A stretch of DNA of 64,000 nt from Thermoanaerobaculia bacterium (GTDB lineage Bacteria; Acidobacteriota; Thermoanaerobaculia; Multivoradales; Multivoraceae), in the NCBI GenBank assembly GCA_963664405.1, contig OY761158.1, positions 6,112,001 through 6,176,000 of the forward strand. The letters run 5' to 3'. A program made the position numbers and the translations under genes. The first letter of the stretch is position 1. Each line of letters begins with the position of its first letter. Below the pieces are notes generated by a model that was not told where the DNA came from, searched no databases, and was given only the letters and a program-made list of their open reading frames with translations. Of this stretch, positions 10,799 to 62,143 are shown piece after piece.

Positions 10799-10966
10799 AA
10801 AGTGGACCGTAACACTCGAACGTTTAGTGGCTGAGTGAGTCATTCGTGGTCGAGATCAAGGCGCGCTGACGCAGGCATATCGGGGACTATGTCGAGGAAG
10901 CGTAACGCAGAGATCGGCCGCGAGGGCCGCTCAGGCGCTAAACGTTTGGGTGTTACGGCCCACTAG
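10799..10966 (+). repeat. Hairpin element, copy 2 (right end CTAG, left end degenerate AAAG)
   Basis: Arms AGTGGACCGTAACACTCGAACGTTTAG / CTAAACGTTTGGGTGTTACGGCCCACTAG; core GGCGCGCTGACGCAGGCATAT..ATGTCGAGGA shared with copy 3. Confidence 0.8.
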
Positions 10967-18091: not shown

Positions 18092-20137
18092 TCATGGGGT
18101 ATACCAGATCGGCGAGGACCATGCACGCTCCTGCAGGGTGGGTGGAAGATCCTGACGCGGCTCGACGCCGGCCCGAATCGCATCCCAGGTCGACCAGCGA
18201 CAGCTTGGATTCTCCAGCACCCGCACGTGGTAGAAGGCCCGCTGGGCGGCGTCGAAATCCGGGTCGGTCCACAGAGCACGCAGCTCACTGGCGCCGACAT
18301 CTTCACCGAAGGTGCAATCGTCGAGGTTCACTTCGGCGCCGTTGTCGGGGCAGCGGTGGGTGCTCGAGCTCACCTCCAGGCCGTCGGAGCAGCCGACGTC
18401 GTAGACACGCTCGTGCGCCTCGCCGTCGGCCACCCAGCCCTTGACCACCTGTAGCCGCTGGAGTGGAGCGCTATTCGGGTCGCGTACGGCCCACGCTAGA
18501 AAGCGAGGTGCATGACCGGTTTCAGCCGGAAGATCGCCGCCCATCGCAACGCCACCGGCGTAGGCCACTTCGATCATGTTCGGATCTGCGACCAGCCCGT
18601 CCTCGAAGTCGTAGCCGGCGAAGAAGCGGATACGCATGCGCGGTCCAGAAGTGGCGAAGGTCTCTTTGCGCCGAAAGGCGTCATAGATCGATTCCCGCGT
18701 GTTCTCCTCCGCCCATACTCCGGCAAGGCCCGAGGCTCCCCAGTAGTGGTAGTAGTTGCTGGTGTACTCGGACCCGTCTTCGTTGGGGGCGTCGAGGGGC
18801 ACGGATCCGCGCTGCTCCGGTGTTGCGTCATTGCGGCCGACCTTGCTGAAGAAATTGTCTTCCTCCTGAGAGCCTGCGGCATTGTGGGAGTCGCTCGAGC
18901 CGATGAGGCCGAAGCGATAGGGGTTGAAGCCCTGCGCTTCTTCCATCTCCAGGCCGTTGAGATACGCCTCTCGCACATAGCTCCCCGAGGGTGTGCTCGG
19001 AGTCGTGGTGGCGATGATGTAGGGGAAGATCTCGAAATCCGCCCATTCGTCGTTGGGCGATAGGGCAGGATGAGTGTCGGAGGTACCTTTGACCTGGGTG
19101 ATCTCTACCAGGGGCTCATTGCGCATTCTTTGCTCGGCGTAGGCTGCGTCGAGAGGCTCACCCTCGAACTTCTCGAGCTCGAACATCTGGCCGTTCGACC
19201 CGTTCGAGTTGTGGGGGATGGCCAGCGCTTCCATCCCCGCCTCACGCTTGCCATCCATCCACGACCACAGAGCCTCCGGGTTCATCGAATCGAGGCGACT
19301 GAAGGGGATGTCGGGCACCGCACTGCCCCGAAAGATCACATTGCGATGGAGGTTCTGCCCTTCCGGGCTTCCCGTGTACTCGTATGCGATGAAGGTCGTG
19401 AACTTACCGGGGTCGTTGTGTCGCTCGGCGGAGGCGACGATCTCCCGCCAGGCCGAGCGAACGACCTCCTTGTCGAGCATGCCGGTGCGCTGGCCCAGGG
19501 TGTGACTCCTCATCTCAGTGAACGCCGTTCGACGTTCGTCGTCGGTGGTCGCCGAGTTGATCTGCTTGGCGAGAGGAGTCTTCGACACTTCCTGCTCGGG
19601 GTCGGACATCGCCTTGAGCATGCCAAGAAAGCTGGCGTGATCCGCGACGGCGTAGAAATCGAGGGGTGCCGACATCTGCACATCGAATCCTGCCGCATGC
19701 TGGATCGCCTCCCCTTTTGCATAGCGATAGGCGTCCTCGGGGCCGGAGCGCGTGCCGAAGATGAAGGCGTCATAGGAGAACACGGTGTGCACGTGCACGT
19801 CGCCGAAGTAGGCGTTGCGAAGGGGGTTCGGCGTCAGTGGGCCGTTTGCGGTGGACGCCAGAGCTTCGAGGGCCGGGTTGTCGATGCCCACTTCGCCGCC
19901 GGATCCGCCACAGCCAGCAATTGCGGAGGCGAGGAGAACGATGGCTAGACCAGCGTTTCCAAAGTTCGTGCTGCATAGCTCGAGGTCATTCTGTTCGCTG
20001 GCTAGGCGCGCTGACGCAGGCATATTGGGCAATATGTCGAGGAGGCGAAACGACGCCAGCGGGCAGAAGGGCCCGAGATATGTGCGCGAACTTTGGAAAC
20101 GCTGGTCTAGTGAGCTCAGTCGGGGGATGTGTTTCAT
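18092..20137 (-). CDS. DUF3604 lipoprotein (PHP-like) with in-frame 54-codon hairpin insertion in its signal peptide
   Basis: YFGDVHVHT, ADHA, AYEYT, NLHRNV, IPHNSNGSNG, KGTSDTHP, QERAWSSPIWY; ATG 20137 with GGAG RBS. Confidence 0.85.
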   Translation of the reverse strand: MKHIPRLSSLDQRFQSSRTYLGPFCPLASFRLLDILPNMPASARLASEQNDLELCSTNFGNAGLAIVLLASAIAGCGGSGGEVGIDNPALEALASTANGPLTPNPLRNAYFGDVHVHTVFSYDAFIFGTRSGPEDAYRYAKGEAIQHAAGFDVQMSAPLDFYAVADHASFLGMLKAMSDPEQEVSKTPLAKQINSATTDDERRTAFTEMRSHTLGQRTGMLDKEVVRSAWREIVASAERHNDPGKFTTFIAYEYTGSPEGQNLHRNVIFRGSAVPDIPFSRLDSMNPEALWSWMDGKREAGMEALAIPHNSNGSNGQMFELEKFEGEPLDAAYAEQRMRNEPLVEITQVKGTSDTHPALSPNDEWADFEIFPYIIATTTPSTPSGSYVREAYLNGLEMEEAQGFNPYRFGLIGSSDSHNAAGSQEEDNFFSKVGRNDATPEQRGSVPLDAPNEDGSEYTSNYYHYWGASGLAGVWAEENTRESIYDAFRRKETFATSGPRMRIRFFAGYDFEDGLVADPNMIEVAYAGGVAMGGDLPAETGHAPRFLAWAVRDPNSAPLQRLQVVKGWVADGEAHERVYDVGCSDGLEVSSSTHRCPDNGAEVNLDDCTFGEDVGASELRALWTDPDFDAAQRAFYHVRVLENPSCRWSTWDAIRAGVEPRQDLPPTLQERAWSSPIWYTP
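19945..20110 (+). mobile_element. CTAG-bounded hairpin element, copy 3 (166 bp), MITE/RPE-like
   Basis: Perfect 24-bp terminal inverted repeat CTAGACCAGCGTTTCCAAAGTTCG; core GACGCAG-GCATATT-gggc-AATATGT-CGAGGA; precise removal restores a canonical signal peptide. Confidence 0.85.
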
Positions 20138-20371
20138 CTCGATCACTCCAGGAAAGTAGCTGAGTCGTACGAGTAACGGAGGGGACTCACGATCCTACAC
20201 CCGCTGTCGGGTGGTCTTTGTCGACGGCTGCGCTGCGGTACTCTCTCGGTTCCTAGAAGGTCAGGAATCGAACCAGGGGTGCCCGACCAGGGGCGCTGGA
20301 CCAGGAGTGCCCCTACCCTTGGCGAATCGGAGGCGAGTGATGGCAGTGAAGAAGAAAAGAGCAAGTCCGTA

Positions 20372-21433
20372 GTGCGAAGGAAGAAAGTCGTGGTGCAGCT
20401 TCCCGGGATCGCCCGCATCGCGTCGGGGTCGCTCGCGAGTCGCTACAAGCATGAACTGGAAGCCTTGCGTCCGGCCGGTGTCCGCCTCGTCGAAGTGCAG
20501 GCGAGCACCGAGGACGAGCTGATCGAAGGCTCGCGCGATGCCGATGCGCTGATCACCTCCTGGGGAATCAAGATCTCAAAGCGCGTGATCGCCGGGCTCG
20601 ATCGTTGTGTCGTAATCGGAGTCGGCAGCGTCGGGGTCGACATGGTCGACATCGCGGCGGCCACCGAGGCCGGTATCGTGGTCACCAACGTACCGGATGT
20701 GTTCATCGAGGAAGTTGCCGATCACGCAATGATGATGCTTCTGGCCTCGGCGCGGCGAGCACGTGAGATGGACGCCCTGGCGCGCGAGCAGAGGTGGTTC
20801 GAGGGGCGCCCACTGCTCAACGAAACCCCGCGCCTGTGGGGGCAGACGCTCGGCTTGGTCGCTTTCGGCAACGTAGCTCGAGCGGTGGCGCGGCGTGCCA
20901 AGCCGTTCGGATTCAAGGTAATTGCCGCCGACCCTTATGTGACCGAGCTGAAGATGACCGGCGAAGGCGTCGAGCCGGTGGATCTGAACGAGCTACTCGA
21001 GCGCTCCGACTACATCTCTGTTCACGCACCGCTGAACAATGAGACCCGCCACCTGCTTTCGACCGCCCAATTCAAGAAGATGAAGAAGACGGCGATCGTG
21101 GTCAACACCTCCCGCGGGCCGGTGATCGATGAGACGGCACTGATCAAGGCCCTGCGCCAAGGCGAGATCGCCGGCGCCGGGCTCGACGTGCTGGAGAAAG
21201 AGCCGCCCAATCCCAGGAATCCGCTGCTCAAGATGCCGAACGTTCTGCTCTCGCCTCACATCGCCTCGGCATCGACGAGGATGCGCCCCCAGACTCGCCG
21301 CCGGGTCGGCTACGAGGTGGCGCTCGCTCTGGGTGGACGTTGGCCGATGAGCTGTGTGAACCCCACGGTGTTGCCGCGTGCCTCCCTCGAGCGCTGGCAG
21401 CCGGTACCGATGGAGCGTGGACCGAATCGGTAG
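20372..21433 (+). CDS. CtBP-like D-2-hydroxyacid dehydrogenase
   Basis: VTNVPD, EEVADH, GLVAFGNVA, NTSRG, GLDV, SPHIA; GTG 20372 chosen by alignment with the paralog at 1-666. Confidence 0.85.
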   Translation: MRRKKVVVQLPGIARIASGSLASRYKHELEALRPAGVRLVEVQASTEDELIEGSRDADALITSWGIKISKRVIAGLDRCVVIGVGSVGVDMVDIAAATEAGIVVTNVPDVFIEEVADHAMMMLLASARRAREMDALAREQRWFEGRPLLNETPRLWGQTLGLVAFGNVARAVARRAKPFGFKVIAADPYVTELKMTGEGVEPVDLNELLERSDYISVHAPLNNETRHLLSTAQFKKMKKTAIVVNTSRGPVIDETALIKALRQGEIAGAGLDVLEKEPPNPRNPLLKMPNVLLSPHIASASTRMRPQTRRRVGYEVALALGGRWPMSCVNPTVLPRASLERWQPVPMERGPNR

Positions 21434-22223: not shown

Positions 22224-24788
22224 CTACTGAGAGGAGTAGCCACCGACCCAGGTCGGGCTCGACCAGGCGCTGGCATCGTTCAGCTGTCGTACCCGAACGT
22301 AGTAGTAGTCGCCTTCGCGTGGCTCGTCGGTGTCGGTGTAGTTGAATTCGATATCACGCTCGCCGTCAGCGATGTGGCGGACGGTAATGCTGTCATCCGG
22401 ATAGCCTTCGATCGGCATCTTGCGCTCGAGTCGGCCGCGACGGAGGTCGCCGAGGGCCAGCCGTACGCGCCCGCCCTCGATGGTGGCTCGTTCGCGGAAG
22501 AAGGGCGGCGCTGAACCCGTTTCGGCGGCGTCTTCGAGATCGAGGACGAGTGCCGCCCCCGGTTGCACATTCGACAGGGCTAGCCTCAGGGAGCTCATCT
22601 CGCCGCGGGTATTGGTCGCGAAACGTGCGCCCCGCTCGTGGGGCTCGAGCCGCTGGGTGGTGGGGTTGGTGAAGTCGGTGGCGCTGACTGCGTCCACCCG
22701 TGCGCCGGAGACGGTGAGGTCGCCGATCCAGTGCCGCCAGCCTCGCGGCGCGTCGCCGGCGTGGAGCGGGGTCGGGTCGGAATAGAACGAGAGCAGAAGC
22801 TCCATCGACCCTCCGCGGCTTGCCTGGGCCGAAGAATACTCGCGCTCCCAGATCTGCTCGCCGTTCTTCATCAGATGGATCGACTCGATCGGGGCGGTAC
22901 CGATGACCCGGCCGCGGATCTCCCTGGTCTCGGAAAAGGGGGCTCGCTGACCCATTTCGACCCCGTTCACCTTGACGTCGAGGATCATCCGGTCGCCGGT
23001 GGTGGCGTAGGTACGCCGCTCTTTCATGGCGTCGAAGATCGCGTCCCGCGACCGCTCCGGGGCCATCACCGCTCCCAAGCCGCCCCGTTGCGCCAGCGAG
23101 TTGCGATTCGGTCCCGAGTAGCCGGGGTGTGACAGGTGGTCGTCGGAGGCCGCGGTCACTCCGACCAGCTGGCCGTGGGCCAGATACGCCTTGATGAACC
23201 ACTCGAAGGAGCCGTGCATCGACATCATCTCGACAAGGGACTCGAGCTTGACGTCCGACTGTCGATAGTCGCCAGGGTTGTGAGCGTGGGGGATGGTCAG
23301 TACGTCGGCCGGGTCGTAGCGCTCTTTCAGCTCCTGGTAGAGCTGCGACAAGCCAGGGTACTCGAGACCTGAGACTCGCTCCTGGTCGCCGATAGTGCGG
23401 AAGAGCACATTGTGATGGCCGCCGTAACGAGCGGCACGGGTCCACTCCCACCCCAGATAGGGAATGAATCGCCCAGGCTCATCGAACTCCGCGCTGGTTT
23501 TTCGCATCAGCTCCCACTCGCCGTCGTCGAGCGAGCTGTCGTGCTCGGAATGGGTGACGTAGTCGAGGCGGGCGTCATCGCGGGCGAATTCCAGGAAGAA
23601 ATTGACCGCGCCGATCCCTTCCGCATAGCCGGAGTGCCCGTGGGTGTCGCCCCAGTAGATGCGGCGCTCAGGGTTCTCGACCACCAGAATCGGGTTCGCC
23701 TCGCCGGTGATCGAACCGTCTTGGGAGCGCAGAGTGATCCAGTGGGGCCCGACCTCGTCGAGGGCCATGTTGACGAGAGTGATCGCCTGGTCGCCGGCCG
23801 GAGTGGAGGAGTGGAGCTCGCCGTTGACGAGGATGTCGAAGGCGGGAATGTCGCCGGTGGCGCGGTTGAAGAAAGCGTCTTCAGCGCGTACCGAGAGCTC
23901 GAACGATTCACCAGGGGTCACGAGGCTCGGCGCGAAACCATGGACTCCGGAAGCATGGGTGCCGGTGACGACAAAGGGCAAGAGAGGCAAGGGTCGCCAT
24001 TCGCTCGAGCCGTCCAAGTCGACATAGAGAGGAAATGGCATGCGACCGCCCGAGGTCGAGGTCATCAGCAGTCCCTCGCCGCCGCCGCTGGTATCGCCGA
24101 TGGTGATGGTGACGGTTTCGCCGGGGTCGAGCTCACCTACCGTCACTCGGAAAGCAATCGCGGGCACGGGGGCCCGGAATCCGCCATGGGGGCCCGAGGC
24201 CATGAACCCCTCCTCGAGCTCCAAGTTGACATCGTCGTCGCTGGTCGCGATCGAGACGTAGCCGGCACCGGTCGGATCGGCGGTCTGGTAGGGCGCGGAG
24301 TTGACATTGAAGTGCCGAGCGACCCAGAAGCCGCCGCCGGTTTGAACCGGATGAGTGCCGACCGTCCAGATCTGCTTCAAGGTGGCATAGGTCCGTGCTT
24401 CGAAGGGTCCCAACGACTCGGCTCTGAGCTCGCCGAGCGCGCCCTCTTCCTCACGCAGAGTGAACTCCCTCACCAGTTGGTCGACGGTGGCCGCAGCGGC
24501 TAGGGCGGCCTGGCCCTGGGGTGGGATGGTCGCGTAGAGCCGCACTCCAGGCCCACCGAGACCGACCTCGCCGCCTGCCAGTGCGTAAGCGTCGACCCAA
24601 TCGGCAAGAACAATTGACCGCTCGCCGAGAGTGCTTGCGTCGGTCGGGCTTGCGCTGACGTCCGCTTTCAGTTTCTCGATCGCGGCGCGCAGTCCACTAT
24701 CGGTAGTTTGCTGCGCGTGCTCGCCGGTTCCAGACCCACAGCCGCCCGCCAGGAGACCGATGAGACAGATTGTGTTCAACACTCTCAT
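22224..24788 (-). CDS. DUF3604/PHP-like metallohydrolase lipoprotein (long subtype, paralog of 964-3519)
   Basis: MRVLNTICLIGLLAGGC lipobox; YWGDTHGH, SEHD, GHHNV, IPHAH, ASDDH, AWSSP. Confidence 0.8.
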   Translation of the reverse strand: MRVLNTICLIGLLAGGCGSGTGEHAQQTTDSGLRAAIEKLKADVSASPTDASTLGERSIVLADWVDAYALAGGEVGLGGPGVRLYATIPPQGQAALAAAATVDQLVREFTLREEEGALGELRAESLGPFEARTYATLKQIWTVGTHPVQTGGGFWVARHFNVNSAPYQTADPTGAGYVSIATSDDDVNLELEEGFMASGPHGGFRAPVPAIAFRVTVGELDPGETVTITIGDTSGGGEGLLMTSTSGGRMPFPLYVDLDGSSEWRPLPLLPFVVTGTHASGVHGFAPSLVTPGESFELSVRAEDAFFNRATGDIPAFDILVNGELHSSTPAGDQAITLVNMALDEVGPHWITLRSQDGSITGEANPILVVENPERRIYWGDTHGHSGYAEGIGAVNFFLEFARDDARLDYVTHSEHDSSLDDGEWELMRKTSAEFDEPGRFIPYLGWEWTRAARYGGHHNVLFRTIGDQERVSGLEYPGLSQLYQELKERYDPADVLTIPHAHNPGDYRQSDVKLESLVEMMSMHGSFEWFIKAYLAHGQLVGVTAASDDHLSHPGYSGPNRNSLAQRGGLGAVMAPERSRDAIFDAMKERRTYATTGDRMILDVKVNGVEMGQRAPFSETREIRGRVIGTAPIESIHLMKNGEQIWEREYSSAQASRGGSMELLLSFYSDPTPLHAGDAPRGWRHWIGDLTVSGARVDAVSATDFTNPTTQRLEPHERGARFATNTRGEMSSLRLALSNVQPGAALVLDLEDAAETGSAPPFFRERATIEGGRVRLALGDLRRGRLERKMPIEGYPDDSITVRHIADGERDIEFNYTDTDEPREGDYYYVRVRQLNDASAWSSPTWVGGYSSQ

Positions 24789-24819
24789 TCTAGATACCCC
24801 CTCGTTTCGACGCCCGGCT

Positions 24820-25203
24820 CCAATACTCGCAGAATTGGTCTGCGCCGTTGCCCGAGGCGAATAGGAAGCAACGCCGGAGTGCGCCCTCCTCGTCGCCAAT
24901 ACTTACAGATTCGGTCTGCGCCGTGGTCCGAAGCGAATAAGAAGCAACGCCCAAGTTCGCCCTCCTCGGCTCCAATGCTCACAGATTCGGTCTGCGCCGT
25001 TGCCCGAAGCGAATAAGAAGCAACGCCCAAGTGCGCCGTCCTCGTCGCCAATACTTACAGATTCGATCTGCGCCGTTGCCCGAAGCGAATAAGAAGCAAC
25101 GCCCAAGTGCGCCGTCCTCGTCGCCAATACTTACAGATTCGATCTGCGCCGTTGCCCGGAGCGAATAGGAAGCAACGCCCGAGCGCGCCGTCCTCGGCGC
25201 CAA
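24820..25203. repeat. Tandem array of five 76-bp units
   Basis: CCAA at 24820, 24896, 24972, 25048, 25124, 25200 (exact 76 period); units near-identical, with GCGCCGTCCTCG(T/G)CGC and CGTTGC..GCAACG hairpins. Confidence 0.95.
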
Positions 25204-39063: not shown

Positions 39064-40977
39064 CTACGGCGTATACCAGATCGGCGAGGACCAGGCGCGC
39101 TCCTGAATCGTGGCAGGGAAGTCCTGACGCGGTGCGACCCCGGCACGCAGTGCGTCCCAGGTCGACCAGCGGCAGGTCGGGTTCTCCAGCACTCGCACGT
39201 AGTAGAAGGCCCGCTGGCCGGCGTCGAAGTCCGGGTCCGTCCAGGTGGTCTTGAGCTCGGTAGCGCCGACACCCTCACTGATCGAGCAATCGCTCAGATC
39301 GACGGAGGCCCCATTGTCTGGACAGCGATGAGTGGCCGAGTTGACAGCAAGTCCGTCTGAGCAGGCGACGTCATAGACGCGCTCCTCGGTTTCGGTGCCC
39401 ACCGACCAACCTTTGACGATCTGCACCCGCTGAAGGGGTGCAGTCATGGCGTCGCGCATCGCCCAGACCAGGAAGCTGGGTGCGCCGCCTCCGTTGAGAT
39501 CGCCGCCCATCGGCACGCCGGCCCGATAGGCTGTCTCGATCAGATCCGACGCCTCGAGGTCGAGCCCCGCCAGATCCGTGCCGCCGAAGAAGCGCACTCG
39601 CATGCGCGTGCCGGAGGTGGCGAAGGTTTCTTTACGGCGCATGCCGTCGAAGAGAGATGAGCGGGTGTTCTCCTCGGCCCATACCCCGGCAAGACCCGAG
39701 CCGCCGTTAGTGATGGTGGTGGTGAAGGGGTAAGTGCGACCGCTGCCGTCGTCGACCGCCTCGATGTCGCCCGTCGGCTCACTGGGTACCGAGGCCCGTT
39801 GCTCGGCCGAGTTGGTTTGTAGCCCGGATGCGCCCCAGAAGTCCTCTTCACTAAAAGAGCCGGCCGCGACATGGGTGTCACTGGAGCCGATGACGCCGAG
39901 CTTGTAAGGGTTGTCGAGACCGCTGGCCTCGATCTCGAGCCCGCGGCGAAAGGCGTCGCGGACATAGCTCCCCGGCGGCTCACTGAGGATACTTGTCGAG
40001 ACCCGATAGGGCATGATCTCGAAGTCGGCCCATTCGTCGTTGGGAGAGAGGGAAGGATGGGTTTCCGAGGTGCCTTTGGTCTGAGTGATCTCGGCGAGTG
40101 GCTCGTTGCGGCTGCGCTTCTCGACGTAGGCGCTGTCGATGGCGCCGCCCTCGAAATACTCCTTCTCGAACATACGGCCGCCGGAACCGTTCATGTTGTG
40201 AGGGATGGCCAGCGCTTCGATGCCGTCGGCGCGCCACTCGTCCATCTTCGCCCACAGGTCTTCGGGATTGAAAGAGTCGAGGCGCGAGAAAGGAATGTCG
40301 GGCACCTTCGAGCCACGGAAGACCACATTGCGGTGTAGGTTCTCGTAGATACCGCCAGGACCGGCCGAGGTGTACTCATAGGCGATAAAGGCGGTGAAGA
40401 CGCCTGGGTCATTGTGGCGGTTCGCGGATGCGGCGATCTCGCTCCATGCGGAGCGCACGATGTCCTTGTTGAGATGCGTCCTTATGCTCGGGTCGGCGTC
40501 TTTCATATAGCGGACGTAGGGCTGCATGGCGGCAAAAATACTCTGTCGCTCGGCCTGGGTCTCGCCCCCGTTCCGTACGGTCTCGGCCGCCGGGTGACCA
40601 TAGGCCGGCGAGTCGGGGTCGTTCATCGCGACCAACATGCCCAGGTAGTTGGCGTGGTCGGCAACGCCTTGAAAGTCCAAGGGTCGGTCGAGCTTCAAGT
40701 CGAAGCCCGCGGGATGCTTGATGGCGTTACCCTTGGCATATTCGTAGGCCTCGTCAGGACCGGCTCGCGTTCCGAACACGAATGCGTCGTACGAATAGCG
40801 GGTGTGGACGTGGAGGTCGCCGAAGTAGGCGTTGCGCTCGTGCGGTGCTGCCGCCGAGCCGGATTCGCCGGCATCTCGGCGCGCCGCATCACTCTCGTGT
40901 GTCGACGGATCCGGAGTCTCGGTGGAGCAAGCCGCAATTAGAGAAGCACCCAGAAGCAGCGCAGTGATTCGGCGCAT
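39064..40977 (-). CDS. DUF3604 lipoprotein
   Basis: MRRITALLLGASLIAAC; YFGDLHVHT, NLHRNV, KGTSETHP, QERAWSSPIWY. Confidence 0.9.
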   Translation of the reverse strand: MRRITALLLGASLIAACSTETPDPSTHESDAARRDAGESGSAAAPHERNAYFGDLHVHTRYSYDAFVFGTRAGPDEAYEYAKGNAIKHPAGFDLKLDRPLDFQGVADHANYLGMLVAMNDPDSPAYGHPAAETVRNGGETQAERQSIFAAMQPYVRYMKDADPSIRTHLNKDIVRSAWSEIAASANRHNDPGVFTAFIAYEYTSAGPGGIYENLHRNVVFRGSKVPDIPFSRLDSFNPEDLWAKMDEWRADGIEALAIPHNMNGSGGRMFEKEYFEGGAIDSAYVEKRSRNEPLAEITQTKGTSETHPSLSPNDEWADFEIMPYRVSTSILSEPPGSYVRDAFRRGLEIEASGLDNPYKLGVIGSSDTHVAAGSFSEEDFWGASGLQTNSAEQRASVPSEPTGDIEAVDDGSGRTYPFTTTITNGGSGLAGVWAEENTRSSLFDGMRRKETFATSGTRMRVRFFGGTDLAGLDLEASDLIETAYRAGVPMGGDLNGGGAPSFLVWAMRDAMTAPLQRVQIVKGWSVGTETEERVYDVACSDGLAVNSATHRCPDNGASVDLSDCSISEGVGATELKTTWTDPDFDAGQRAFYYVRVLENPTCRWSTWDALRAGVAPRQDFPATIQERAWSSPIWYTP

Positions 40978-60386: not shown

Positions 60387-62110
60387 CTACTCGTCGGGCT
60401 GATACCAGATCGGCGACGTATAGGCCCGCTCCTGCAGTGTCGGCGCGAGATCTCCCCGCGGCGGCAGTCCGGCGGCAGCGGTGTCGTAGGTCGACCAGCG
60501 TGGGGTCGGAATCTCGATCACGCGCAGGTAATAGAAGGCCGGCACGTCGGCATCGAAATCAGGATCGGTCCACACCGCCCGCAGGGTCGCGGCGCCAATA
60601 TCGTTGGTGTACGTCGCTTTCCATACGTCGACCGTGTTGCCGACGGGCGGCGCCTTGTCGGTGGGGCCGACTTCGCGGCCGTCCGACAGCGTCAGATCGT
60701 AGATGCGCTCGAAGGTCTCGCCGTCGTCGGTCCAGCCCTTGATCAACTGGATACGGTCGAGATTTGCGCCCTTCGGATCTTTCGCCGCCCATACGACGAA
60801 GTGTGGGGGGGCGTGCGCCGACCCTCGCAGGACGCCGCCCATGGGGACGCCACCGGCATAGCCTGCCCTGACCCAGTCATTCTTATCGAGGATGTCGCTG
60901 TCATAGTGCCAGCCGCCAAAAAAACGCACCGTGATGCGGGGCCCCGTAGTGGCGTAGGTCTCGCGACGGCGTATTCCCGCGAAGAGCTCTTCGCGGGTAT
61001 TCTCCGGCGCCCAGATGGCGGTCAAGCCTGCCGCGCTGCGCCCTTGAAAAGGCATCCGGCTCCAGGTGCTCGTGGTCAGGCGCTCTTCGAGAGTGCCGTC
61101 GACCGTGTCGCCGGACATGCTGCTCATGTTGTTTTCTTCTACCGCCGAGGTGCCGGAGTGGAAGTCCGTCGCTCCCGCAAAGCCGAACTGGAAGGGGTTG
61201 TAGCCTTCCTCTGCCTGTAGCCGGACCCCGTTCCTCAGGGCTTCACGGACGTAACTGCCCGGCACTTTGCCGATTCTGCCTTCGGCGACCAGGAGCTCGG
61301 GAAAGAGCTCGAAGTCGGCAAACTCGTCATTCGGCGACATCACCGGATGGGTCTCGGAGGTACCCTTTGCCTGCGTGATCTCGACCACGGGCTCGTTGCG
61401 CATGCGCTGCACGGCGTAGCTCGCGGTCAGCGGCTCGCCGGCGAAATCGACCAGCGCGAACATCCGCCCGTCGCTCACATTCATATTGTGTGGGATCGCG
61501 ACGGCGTCGACGTTGTGCGCGCGCTGGGTATCGAGGTAATCCCAGAGGTCTTCGGGGTTATCCGAGTCTTCTCCGGAAAACGGCATTGGCAGGCCTTTAG
61601 TGTCTTCGAAGATCACACAGCGGTGAAGGTTGCCGCGGTCGATAGCAACGGTCCATTCGTAAGCGGCGAAAGTGGTGAACTCGCCCGGCGCGTTGTGCCG
61701 ATCGGCGGACGCGACGATCTTGCGCCAGACCTCACGGCCGACCTCTGGGTGGTCGAAGAGCTCCATGTTCTCTCCGGTGCGGCGGGCATTGCTCCAGTCA
61801 TAGAGGCCCTGCAGTCGGGTCTCCCGGTCGCGCGAGTTGGCTCGTTTGACGATGGGGTGGTCGCGATCAGGATGATTGGGGTCGGTGAAGGTCTGGAGGA
61901 CGCCGAGATTTTCGGCGTGGTCGGTCACCGCCATGAAATCGAAAGGCGTTCCGAGTTGAATGCGGGTGCCCCCGATGTGCGCCACCTCTTCCCCCTTGGC
62001 ATAGCGGTAGGCATCGTCGGGCGTCCGCTCCGTACCGAAGGCGAAGGCGTCATTCGAATAGCGGGTGTGGAGGTGGAGATCGCCGAAGTAGACGTTCTCG
62101 GCCGGCTCAG
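60387..62110 (-). pseudogene. DUF3604 protein, 5' end (signal peptide) displaced by transposon end
   Basis: Begins abruptly at EPAENVYFGDLHLHT; DUF3604 motifs intact to QERAYTSPIWY; upstream in-frame ATG lies in the element's terminal repeats. Confidence 0.75.
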
Positions 62111-62143
62111 TGAGAGTGATCACGGTAATCGATGGCGGGCTGA

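Follow-up and report, generated by a model that had tools for sequence, protein, structure and literature searches.

The element described here is like RPEs, ERIC, QMITE, BOX, RUP, and BRE, which are multi-copy palindromic repeats of about 100–170 bp that occur in frame in ORFs. In the accessible parts of the literature, intragenic MITEs are presumed to be translated together with the host protein, and fusions at both the 5′ and the 3′ ends of genes have been described (PMC10969869, PMC3184786); the word “signal” is absent from the accessible text of the first of these sources, a 2024 review of intragenic MITEs. Elements of the IS630 family, such as IS630 of Shigella sonnei and ISY100, insert at TA and duplicate this target on insertion, according to the accessible part of a further source (PMC2170065).

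The present copy lies in a 64-kb window (the whole stretch of DNA that was analysed, 64,000 nucleotides) of a 6.78-Mb Acidobacteriota genome, in a DUF3604 lipoprotein gene on the minus strand (Table 1). The product of this gene matches PF12228 over residues 105–681 with E = 4.4e-237 (score 788.7 bits, cut-off 20.4; 2–591 of the 591 profile positions). A preliminary description of the locus gave the length of the element as 166 bp, or 162 bp net and 54 codons after removal of one CTAG, which agrees with the sequence; read on the minus strand, it is bounded by a first CTAG at 20110–20107 and a last CTAG at 19948–19945. The frame was stated to be open with the element present, and the minus-strand ORF 18092..20146 is indeed free of stops across the 54 added codons. 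Also borne out are the GGAG ribosome-binding site ahead of the start codon (20149–20146) and the separation, with preservation of the frame, of the basic n-region MKHIPRLSS from the h-region in LAIVLLASAIAGC. The elements of a lipoprotein signal (basic n-region, hydrophobic h-region, and lipobox Cys) are all present around the insertion, in an architecture that is shared by the orthologues; the part of LAIVLLASAIAGC that we take to be the lipobox conforms to the usual pattern. A 4-bp CTAG duplication, which had also been proposed, is not established, because duplication of CTAG and duplication of TA within CTAG are indistinguishable from sequence; since the parent of the element belongs to the IS630 family, as discussed below, TA duplication in a CTAG target is implied. 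A search of positions 19700–20400 against Rfam gave zero matches at E ≤ 1, and no promoter-like or terminator-like site was found inside the element. Two terminator-like matches are located at 20198–20214, beyond the element.

Table 1. Features of the DUF3604 locus; positions are those of the 64,000-nucleotide window
Feature	Position	Strand	Remarks
MITE copy including both flanking CTAGs, 166 bp	19945..20110	.	net 162 bp = 54 codons
Terminal inverted repeat, arm 1	19945..19971	.	27 nt, 96% complementary to 20084-20110
Terminal inverted repeat, arm 2	20084..20110	.	same 20-nt end seen in other phyla
DUF3604 lipoprotein gene carrying the element	18092..20137	-	681 codons including element; Pfam PF12228
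GGAG Shine-Dalgarno-like motif	20146..20149	-	8-nt spacer to ATG; read from sequence
Start codon (ATG 20137-20135) and n-region MKHIPRLSS, nine codons	20111..20137	-	upstream of element
h-region and lipobox LAIVLLASAIAGC	19910..19948	-	directly after element; Cys codon 19912-19910; homologue alignments begin at residues 57-65
In-frame ATG within element, residue 39	20021..20023	-	no SD-like motif before; unlikely alternative start
Stretch missing from natural empty allele, 171 nt	19946..20116	.	element + 9 nt of n-region

A mobile element that is repeated in the genome has inserted secondarily into the signal-peptide codons of the gene. The preliminary description had argued for an insertion from the sequence of this one locus, and the argument is upheld both by homologues that lack the 54 residues and by a strain, about 98% identical, that lacks the element. 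In alignments with DUF3604 relatives the 54-residue segment is not ancestral, being absent from every paralogue and orthologue examined; the alignments begin at residues 57–107 of the 681-residue product, and apart from the locus itself there are two exceptions, each of which is explained. A match in genome G009 that seemingly reached residue 17 was discarded because it extends across stop codons in the DNA upstream, and the gene in question has its own short lipoprotein signal. Short lipoprotein signals are found at 11 of 11 orthologue loci, but none of the 57 family genomes searched contains a same-genus orthologue giving a precise empty site. The natural empty allele is represented by one contig from each of two sequencing runs belonging to two studies (X7 and X8), in which position 19945 is joined to 20117 and the records run through the joint without a gap; it is a single allele that is missing 171 nt, with no CTAG at the joint, and it differs from the locus at about 12 positions in 646 nt. 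Runs X1 and X3 contain the occupied allele. The two alleles, compared over the interval 19300–19945, show 9 synonymous and 2 non-synonymous changes, and the DUF3604 gene is under constraint. Most of the divergence between these alleles may predate the insertion.

The element is a non-autonomous, IS-derived transposon (MITE), one of about 139 copies in the genome. The family occupies 271 non-overlapping places in blastn searches, and from 142 pairs of ends less than 400 bp apart, 139 were retained as two-ended copies; these are 164–257 bp in length and 64 of them are exactly 166 bp, a size that is appropriate for a MITE and leaves no space for a transposase gene. CTAG is present at both ends of 116 of the 139 copies, the outer flanks are unconserved, and all family insertion sites are CTAG-like, which fits IS630-type insertion at TA with a preference for CTAG. 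To judge from the title of a 1991 paper, IS630 reportedly prefers TA within 5′-CTAG-3′. Within the window the 24-nt element end occurs twice, against zero occurrences expected from shuffles. The 57 family genomes searched yielded no full-length high-copy MITE outside the source genome. Two other Acidobacteriota MAGs contain copies (3–4 in G070 and about 8 diverged ones in G071), and extension of the signal-peptide pattern described below to these genomes was dropped because the copies are too few.

The parent of the MITE is an IS630/Tc1-mariner-type insertion sequence that targets CTAG. The exact 20-nt end of the MITE borders an element of roughly 1.28 kb in an Alphaproteobacteria MAG (G031, locus L051), which contains a 392-residue transposase with Pfam matches to DDE_3 (6e-21), HTH_32 (4e-11), and HTH_29 (1.2e-7). 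The identity of the terminal repeat in an insertion sequence from Alphaproteobacteria and in MITEs from Acidobacteriota points to cross-phylum transfer of the transposon family. In the source genome no cognate transposase was found; the only two DDE_3 genes there share 28% identity with the parent-type transposase, and their ends are unrelated to those of the MITE. Three long forms bounded by the MITE ends were considered as a resident parent and rejected, because they represent MITE copies that contain other, nested insertion sequences: from their translations, each of the two forms of 2706 bp has a tyrosine recombinase together with an IS91-like gene, and the single one of 3639 bp has IstA/IstB-like genes.

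The transposase content of the genome bears on a suggestion made in the preliminary description, that the element might be removed at the DNA or RNA level. Removal before protein synthesis would require either excision from the DNA in part of the population or loss from the RNA. It is the case that IS630-type elements excise via double-strand cuts, according to the accessible part of the source (PMC2170065), and that a natural allele without the element exists. However, nothing supports removal at this locus: the genome is without a cognate transposase, the contigs of runs X1 and X3, which carry the occupied allele, never join across the element (it should be recognized that contigs drop rare variants), and the empty allele comes from a strain that is diverged by about 2% and is missing 171 nt rather than 162 nt. 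No RNA sequencing run containing the locus is listed. We know of no mechanism for splicing a MITE out of bacterial mRNA, and removal at either level appears extremely improbable.

The caution in the preliminary description that an open frame of 54 codons could be due to chance was well placed, as about 43% of the four usable frames are free of stops in random 158-mers of the genome flanked by CTAG. When the inner sequence was shuffled 5000 times, 347 of the shuffles had at least three of the four usable frames open; among 5000 random genomic 158-mers the corresponding number was 967. The family consensus is stop-free in the frame that is used by the DUF3604 gene, and the 166-bp copies outside signal peptides are equally open (47–49 of 50). 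The view of the open frame as an adaptation is therefore rejected, since copies outside signal peptides are just as open and random 158-mers are often open.

Where copies of the family survive within genes, they do so almost exclusively in signal peptides or on TAG stop codons. With gene calls from a custom caller that takes the longest-ORF start, the element was found to occupy 48 of 829 CTAG sites at TAG stop codons and 50 of 2394 intergenic sites, and 18 of 642 sites within the first 30 codons but only 1 of 2511 in mid-gene; this census suggests that selection filters transposon insertions by the harm that they cause. In a comparison covering CTAG sites within the first 75 codons, a strong hydrophobic stretch is present in the next 20 residues at 9 of 20 sites that are occupied and at 155 of 976 that are not (Fisher p = 0.002). 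A bias of intragenic copies to lengths of 3n, which had been raised as a point to be checked, is evident in this group, as each of the 9 copies before hydrophobic stretches has a length of 3n and is free of stops throughout, compared with 39–48% of the remaining 122 copies in the three consensus-open frames. There are 17 copies (16 loci) that immediately precede an h-region and have a start codon no more than 23 codons upstream, but this list demands read-through and is hence partly circular as to 3n length. We judge it slightly more probable than its converse that the n-region/h-region junction of cleaved signal peptides, together with TAG stops, provides general safe harbours for MITEs in bacterial genes. 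If this rule is true, Sec and lipoprotein signal peptides tolerate 54–84 extra n-region residues, and the 17 natural insertions in one genome are a ready-made experiment on n-region length and charge. In the literature searched on MITEs or palindromic elements in signal peptides, no paper describing MITEs at such sites and no statement of the safe-harbour rule was found.

At the DUF3604 locus the element is probably a passenger that the cell tolerates: translation would include it, and it would then be lost together with the signal peptide. The MITE jumped, probably recently, into a CTAG overlapping the Leu-Ala codons with which the h-region begins; it adds a net 162 nt and has no stop in the consensus frame, and therefore the gene stays open and the pre-protein would gain a cytoplasmic n-region longer by 54 residues. 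Translation would still begin at the original ATG (20137) with GGAG before it, the ribosome would read through the hairpin, and the h-region and lipobox would presumably remain recognised, so that signal peptidase II would cut off the whole extended signal peptide and release an unchanged mature lipoprotein. The survival of intragenic copies almost exclusively in signal peptides and on TAG stops would thereby be accounted for.

A counter-point to a tolerated passenger is that the copy is young, differing by no more than 1 nt from five other genomic copies in blastn comparisons and being absent from the 98% identical strain, and selection may not yet have acted on it. It is possible, although we consider it unlikely, that the insertion is a recent and mildly or fully disabling one, in which the long acidic extension, or else the hairpin, makes translation or export less efficient and the gene is a nascent pseudogene, tolerated via dozens of DUF3604 paralogues. 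The youth of the copy and its near identity to others are consistent with this, and the residues immediately preceding the h-region in the frame of the gene, ASEQNDLELCSTNFGNAG, are acidic, which is unfavourable for the n-region of a signal peptide. From its predicted stability, the −87 kcal/mol hairpin, which begins 27 nt downstream of the start codon, could impede ribosomes or be a target for RNase III. Loss of one DUF3604 copy could be tolerable, as the genome contains more than 38 matches to DUF3604, and a third paralogue (genome positions 1864847–1866823) has a truncated half element with no clear h-region after it. Against a disabling insertion, the ORF is intact through 681 codons and synonymous differences outnumber non-synonymous ones, though the latter point is qualified by the possibility that most of the divergence is older than the insertion. 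The sites before hydrophobic stretches were also defined independently of the element, yet every copy there is 3n and open; since this is expected only if read-through matters, the disabling alternative is weakened.

The predicted RNA fold of the element has an energy of −87.3 kcal/mol, compared with −47.6 ± 4.25 kcal/mol for 200 shuffles (z = −9.3). A hairpin so stable and self-contained would be suited to an RNA-level regulator, a 5′-proximal structure that acts as an RNase III site or translational brake and produces an altered expression that is used by the cell, and RNase III processing of MITE stems is put forward as a hypothesis for a Coxiella MITE in the accessible part of one source (PMC5896051). 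A regulatory role is nevertheless improbable here, since copies occur in three frames, in both orientations, and in unrelated genes, with a distribution of sites that is as predicted by a harm filter, and the element has neither an Rfam match nor a promoter-like or terminator-like site. In addition, the predicted accessibility of the Shine-Dalgarno region is unchanged, the mean unpaired probability from this motif to the start being 0.32 when the element is present and 0.33 when it is absent.

The element could instead donate a new N terminus if translation were to start inside it, at the ATG at 20023–20021 or at a TTG just before it, and every usable element frame does contain an in-frame ATG 10–27 codons before the element end. 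An internal start is highly improbable, however, because the internal ATG sits in the hairpin with no SD-like motif ahead of it, whereas the original ATG keeps its GGAG, and because the resulting n-region would be net negative. A 3n length of the element would also be irrelevant to such a start, yet all signal-peptide copies are 3n.

The insertion has consequences for annotation. A lipobox Cys usually lies within about the first 35–40 residues of a lipoprotein precursor, but in this product it is residue 76 with the element, outside the usual range, as opposed to near residue 20 without it. The gene is intact, yet lipoprotein and signal-peptide predictors and start callers are likely to mis-call it, and at least 16 other genes for secreted proteins in the genome are affected likewise. 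With respect to biology, the census gives a clean view of insertion filtering in the contrast between mid-gene and stop-codon sites, and it suggests that very long n-region extensions are acceptable in signal peptides.

The case is not a new kind of system and represents a known kind of in-frame MITE. The likeness to Rickettsia palindromic elements drawn in the preliminary description is a fair one with respect to behaviour, in that both are palindromic repeats lying in frame inside genes. The present family is distinguished by ends that are clearly of the IS630 type and by CTAG as its target. The family also differs from the RPE type in that its intragenic copies are almost only in signal peptides or on TAG stops and not in mature protein bodies. 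Its relationship to the IS630 family is apparent from the DDE_3 and HTH transposase that adjoins the same terminal repeat in the Alphaproteobacteria MAG. In contrast to IS630 elements, the copy has no transposase gene, and the matching full-length element is found only in another phylum.

The element lies in the signal-peptide codons of a gene for a DUF3604 lipoprotein, and the preliminary description of it as an in-frame hairpin within a lipoprotein signal is borne out at these coordinates by the layout, the arms, the open frame and the fold. The net gain is 162 nt, or 54 codons, the host frame has no stop throughout, and the product with the element has 681 aa. Folding of the element RNA gives one long hairpin (−87.3 kcal/mol versus −47.6 ± 4.25 for shuffles; z = −9.3); that it serves as a regulatory hairpin is a reading to which we give low probability. 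The analysis shows that an IS630-type MITE has inserted at a CTAG overlapping the first Leu-Ala of the h-region, with the frame kept.

Features of the DUF3604 locus (window positions) and insertion sequences nested in MITE copies (positions in the window's own genome, G000; gene contents from reading of translations)
Feature	Position	Strand	Description
GGAG	20149-20146	minus	8 nt ahead of ATG
Start codon ATG	20137-20135	minus	DUF3604 lipoprotein gene
n-region MKHIPRLSS		minus	nine codons after DUF3604 gene start
Element	20110 down to 19945		166 bp, CTAG at both ends
Terminal inverted repeat arms	19945-19971 and 20084-20110		27 nt each, 96% complementary
LAIVLLASAIAGC codons, then DUF3604 domain		minus	directly after element
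Nested insertion sequence	G000:C1:6272417-6275122		2706 bp; tyrosine recombinase and IS91-like gene
Nested insertion sequence	G000:C1:6758844-6761549		2706 bp; tyrosine recombinase and IS91-like gene
Nested insertion sequence	G000:C1:6281697-6285335		3639 bp; IstA/IstB-like genes

DUF3604 is strongly expanded: the window's own genome has at least 38 matches, and 25 of the 31 genomes searched have some. Among the matches listed, besides the locus itself, alignments begin at residues 51-107 or later, past nearly all of the 54-residue insert, with two exceptions. One is a paralogue in the same genome (1864847-1866823) that itself has copies of the element; the other, in genome G009, was rejected as an apparent N-terminal match that runs through stop codons in upstream DNA, and the G009 gene bears a short lipoprotein signal of its own. 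Short signals (M..R/K, a hydrophobic stretch, Cys) are present in all 11 orthologue loci fetched, one of which (L037) has ...YSLAIVLAIVTILCGAC where the junction would fall. The most direct line of proof comes from public sequencing runs. Two of them, from two studies (X7 and X8), each contain one contig (4046 and 3735 nt) that joins 19945 directly to 20117, with no intervening letters and no letters in common at the joint, and that differs from the window at 12 positions in 646 nt. The claim that the element is an insertion is thus upheld by the short orthologue signals and by contigs that do not contain it. The empty site itself was found only in part as anticipated: an element-free allele exists, but it is shorter by 171 nt, not 162, having neither the element nor 9 nt (AGCTCACTA) of a precise empty site. 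It reads MKHIPRL and then AIVLL..., in frame, with no CTAG remaining, and the shortfall of 9 nt may reflect either a separate indel or an imprecise loss. In runs X1 and X3, from two other studies, identical contigs extend from the flanks into the element for 28-30 nt and then stop, and represent the occupied allele. A search for products lacking the 162 bp gave no joint across the element in these contigs, and no RNA run was found to contain the locus; with this and with no resident transposase, removal of the element at the DNA or RNA level is improbable.

Translation would start at the original ATG as before, the predicted unpaired probability from the Shine-Dalgarno sequence to the start being 0.32 in the occupied sequence and 0.33 once the element is taken out. 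Initiation at the internal ATG (20023-20021), a codon within the stem and lacking a Shine-Dalgarno sequence, has little likelihood. From the original start, the ribosome would unwind the hairpin, the 54 residues would remain cytoplasmic as part of a 63-residue n-region and, by the lipobox rule as applied here, signal peptidase II would cut off the whole extended signal and leave the mature lipoprotein unaltered. Judged from sequence and taken jointly, these steps are fairly probable. The occupied and empty alleles differ between 19300 and 19945 by 9 synonymous and 2 non-synonymous changes, and the DUF3604 gene has therefore been under constraint. A recent knock-down or nascent pseudogene of this gene, which we regard as possible but unlikely, is the main rival to the element as a passenger; counting against the passenger reading, the copy is young, with selection perhaps still to act, the insert's final 18 residues are acidic in the host frame, and many paralogues in the genome could cover a loss.

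The genome (6.78 Mb, one contig, 62.6% G+C) holds the element family at 271 non-overlapping places by blastn. When as many as 3 mismatches are allowed, its 20-nt end occurs 154 times forward and 150 times in reverse, forming 142 end pairs of <400 bp, with lengths of 166 bp (64 pairs), 165 (20), 167 (17), 179 (14), 178 (7), 244 (5), 257 (4) and a few others. The family set used here comprises 139 non-overlapping end pairs of 130-400 bp; CTAG stands at both ends in 116 of them, and bases further out are unconserved. Some 16 copies share at least 98% identity with the window copy, while the genome has no matching transposase. Three end pairs of 2.7-3.6 kb were considered as a parent element and rejected, each being a MITE copy that houses another insertion sequence. 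Within the element, at 20001-20004, lies a further CTAG, close to which the 244- and 257-bp variants have roughly 78-91 additional nt, and which may be a target of nested insertions; loose contig ends in X7 and X8 begin nearby, at 20006. Dozens of places in the genome, including window positions 10839-10907 (G000:C1:6122839-6122907), resemble the element at 70-87% identity over its interior alone (positions 33-137, 41-108 or 20-148), without its ends, and families of related hairpin repeats with different termini therefore exist.

For a census of sites, all 139 copies were cut out in silico before gene calling with a home-made dicodon caller using longest-ORF starts (5312 genes, 85% coding density); the gene calls and the hydrophobicity thresholds are our own crude criteria. 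CTAG is roughly three times rarer than base composition predicts (7314 sites versus 23143 expected). By this crude caller TAG ends 1974 of the 5312 genes, and C precedes 874 of these TAGs. Occupancy is highest at stop codons (5.8%), and about 48-50 copies lie exactly on a gene's TAG (xxC|TAG; e.g. G000:C1:117665, 436287, 671743), where insertion regenerates TAG and the protein is unaltered. Copies of the family inside genes survive only at low-harm sites.

Occupancy of CTAG sites by class, leaving out 13 copies with a retained 4-mer other than CTAG
CTAG class	Occupied/total
Stop codon (xxC TAG)	48/829
Intergenic	50/2394
First 30 codons	18/642
Codons 30-75	7/547
Last 30 codons	2/391
Mid-gene	1/2511

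For genes with a score of 30 or more, CTAG sites within the initial 75 codons were compared: a strongly hydrophobic 9-mer follows within the next 20 residues at 9 of 20 occupied versus 155 of 976 unoccupied sites (odds ratio 4.3, Fisher p = 0.002). A bias of intragenic copies to lengths of 3n, proposed as a check, is seen at these hydrophobic sites: all nine copies there are 3n and open throughout in the host frame, whereas 39-48% of the other 122 copies are both, in the three frames open in the consensus. The preliminary caution that an open 54-codon frame could be chance was justified, since the consensus is open in 3 of the 4 frames in which CTAG is not read as a stop, 47-49 of 50 166-bp copies outside signal peptides are open in these three frames and 1 of 50 is in the fourth, and at least 3 open frames occur in 347 of 5000 inner-part shuffles and 967 of 5000 random genomic 158-mers. 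A caller-free test listed 42 read-through ORFs followed by 150 or more codons; among them, 17 copies (16 loci, one gene being duplicated) directly precede an h-region, with a start codon no more than 23 codons upstream; this count, which leaves out 536155 (ORFs on both strands qualify) and 2800039 (low GC3), presupposes read-through and is circular where 3n length is concerned. Of the 17, two are in or near other DUF3604 paralogues, one of them (G000:C1:2553222-2553387) in frame between the start (...PLEM) and the h-region and lipobox LLAPILGVVVAAALTGAC, in a frame and orientation that differ from those of the window copy. A third paralogue (G000:C1:1864616-1864942) carries a complete copy upstream and, immediately behind its MTQ start, a half copy truncated to element positions 1-87, with no clear h-region next, and may be damaged. 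Further DUF3604-type genes lie in the window at 22224-24899, 39067-40962 and 60396-62111, and most DUF3604 genes of the genome have lipoprotein-type or Sec-type signals.

With one genome scanned per species, the exact 20-nt end was found in at least 8 stretches. Four of the 8 listed contain short hairpin elements, in Acidobacteriota, Vicinamibacteria and Thermoanaerobaculia MAGs; the remaining four all lie in one Alphaproteobacteria MAG (G031), and in three of these a transposase gene on the opposite strand comes next, with its 3' end facing the repeat end. At locus L051 of G031 there is a CTAG-flanked element of ~1.28 kb whose inverted ends are imperfect and whose 392-aa ORF matches DDE_3, HTH_32 and HTH_29, the IS630-family architecture. 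A 1991 paper, by its title, reportedly gives the TA within 5'-CTAG-3' as the preferred IS630 target. IS630-family elements are described as inserting at TA, which is duplicated (PMC2170065). Given a DDE_3/HTH parent with the same end and this TA/CTAG insertion habit, the window element is therefore an IS630-type MITE. No cognate transposase was found among the DDE_3 genes of the window's own genome, checked by identity and ends: there are only two, which share 28% identity with the G031 transposase and have unrelated ends. An identical 20-24-nt repeat bounds the full element in G031 (L044, L048, L049, L051) and short MITEs in several Acidobacteriota MAGs (L043, L045, L046, L050). A terminal repeat common to the two phyla points to a cross-phylum spread of the transposon family. 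In another Acidobacteriota MAG (G070), every MITE copy found and every DUF3604-region match fall within one ~180-kb stretch of a single contig (C5:1.38-1.56 Mb; L056, L059, L061, L063, L064).

A literature search for a MITE or palindromic element with a signal peptide returned no paper on point; the word "signal" is absent from the text of a 2024 review (PMC10969869), as is the term "signal peptide" from that of the Coxiella MITE paper. Repeats that extend the 5' and 3' ends of genes are on record (PMC3184786). The value of the present case lies in a clean site census and a natural empty allele. In-frame fusion of MITEs to host ORFs is described as not unusual, with Rickettsia palindromic elements (RPEs) the extreme case (PMC10969869).
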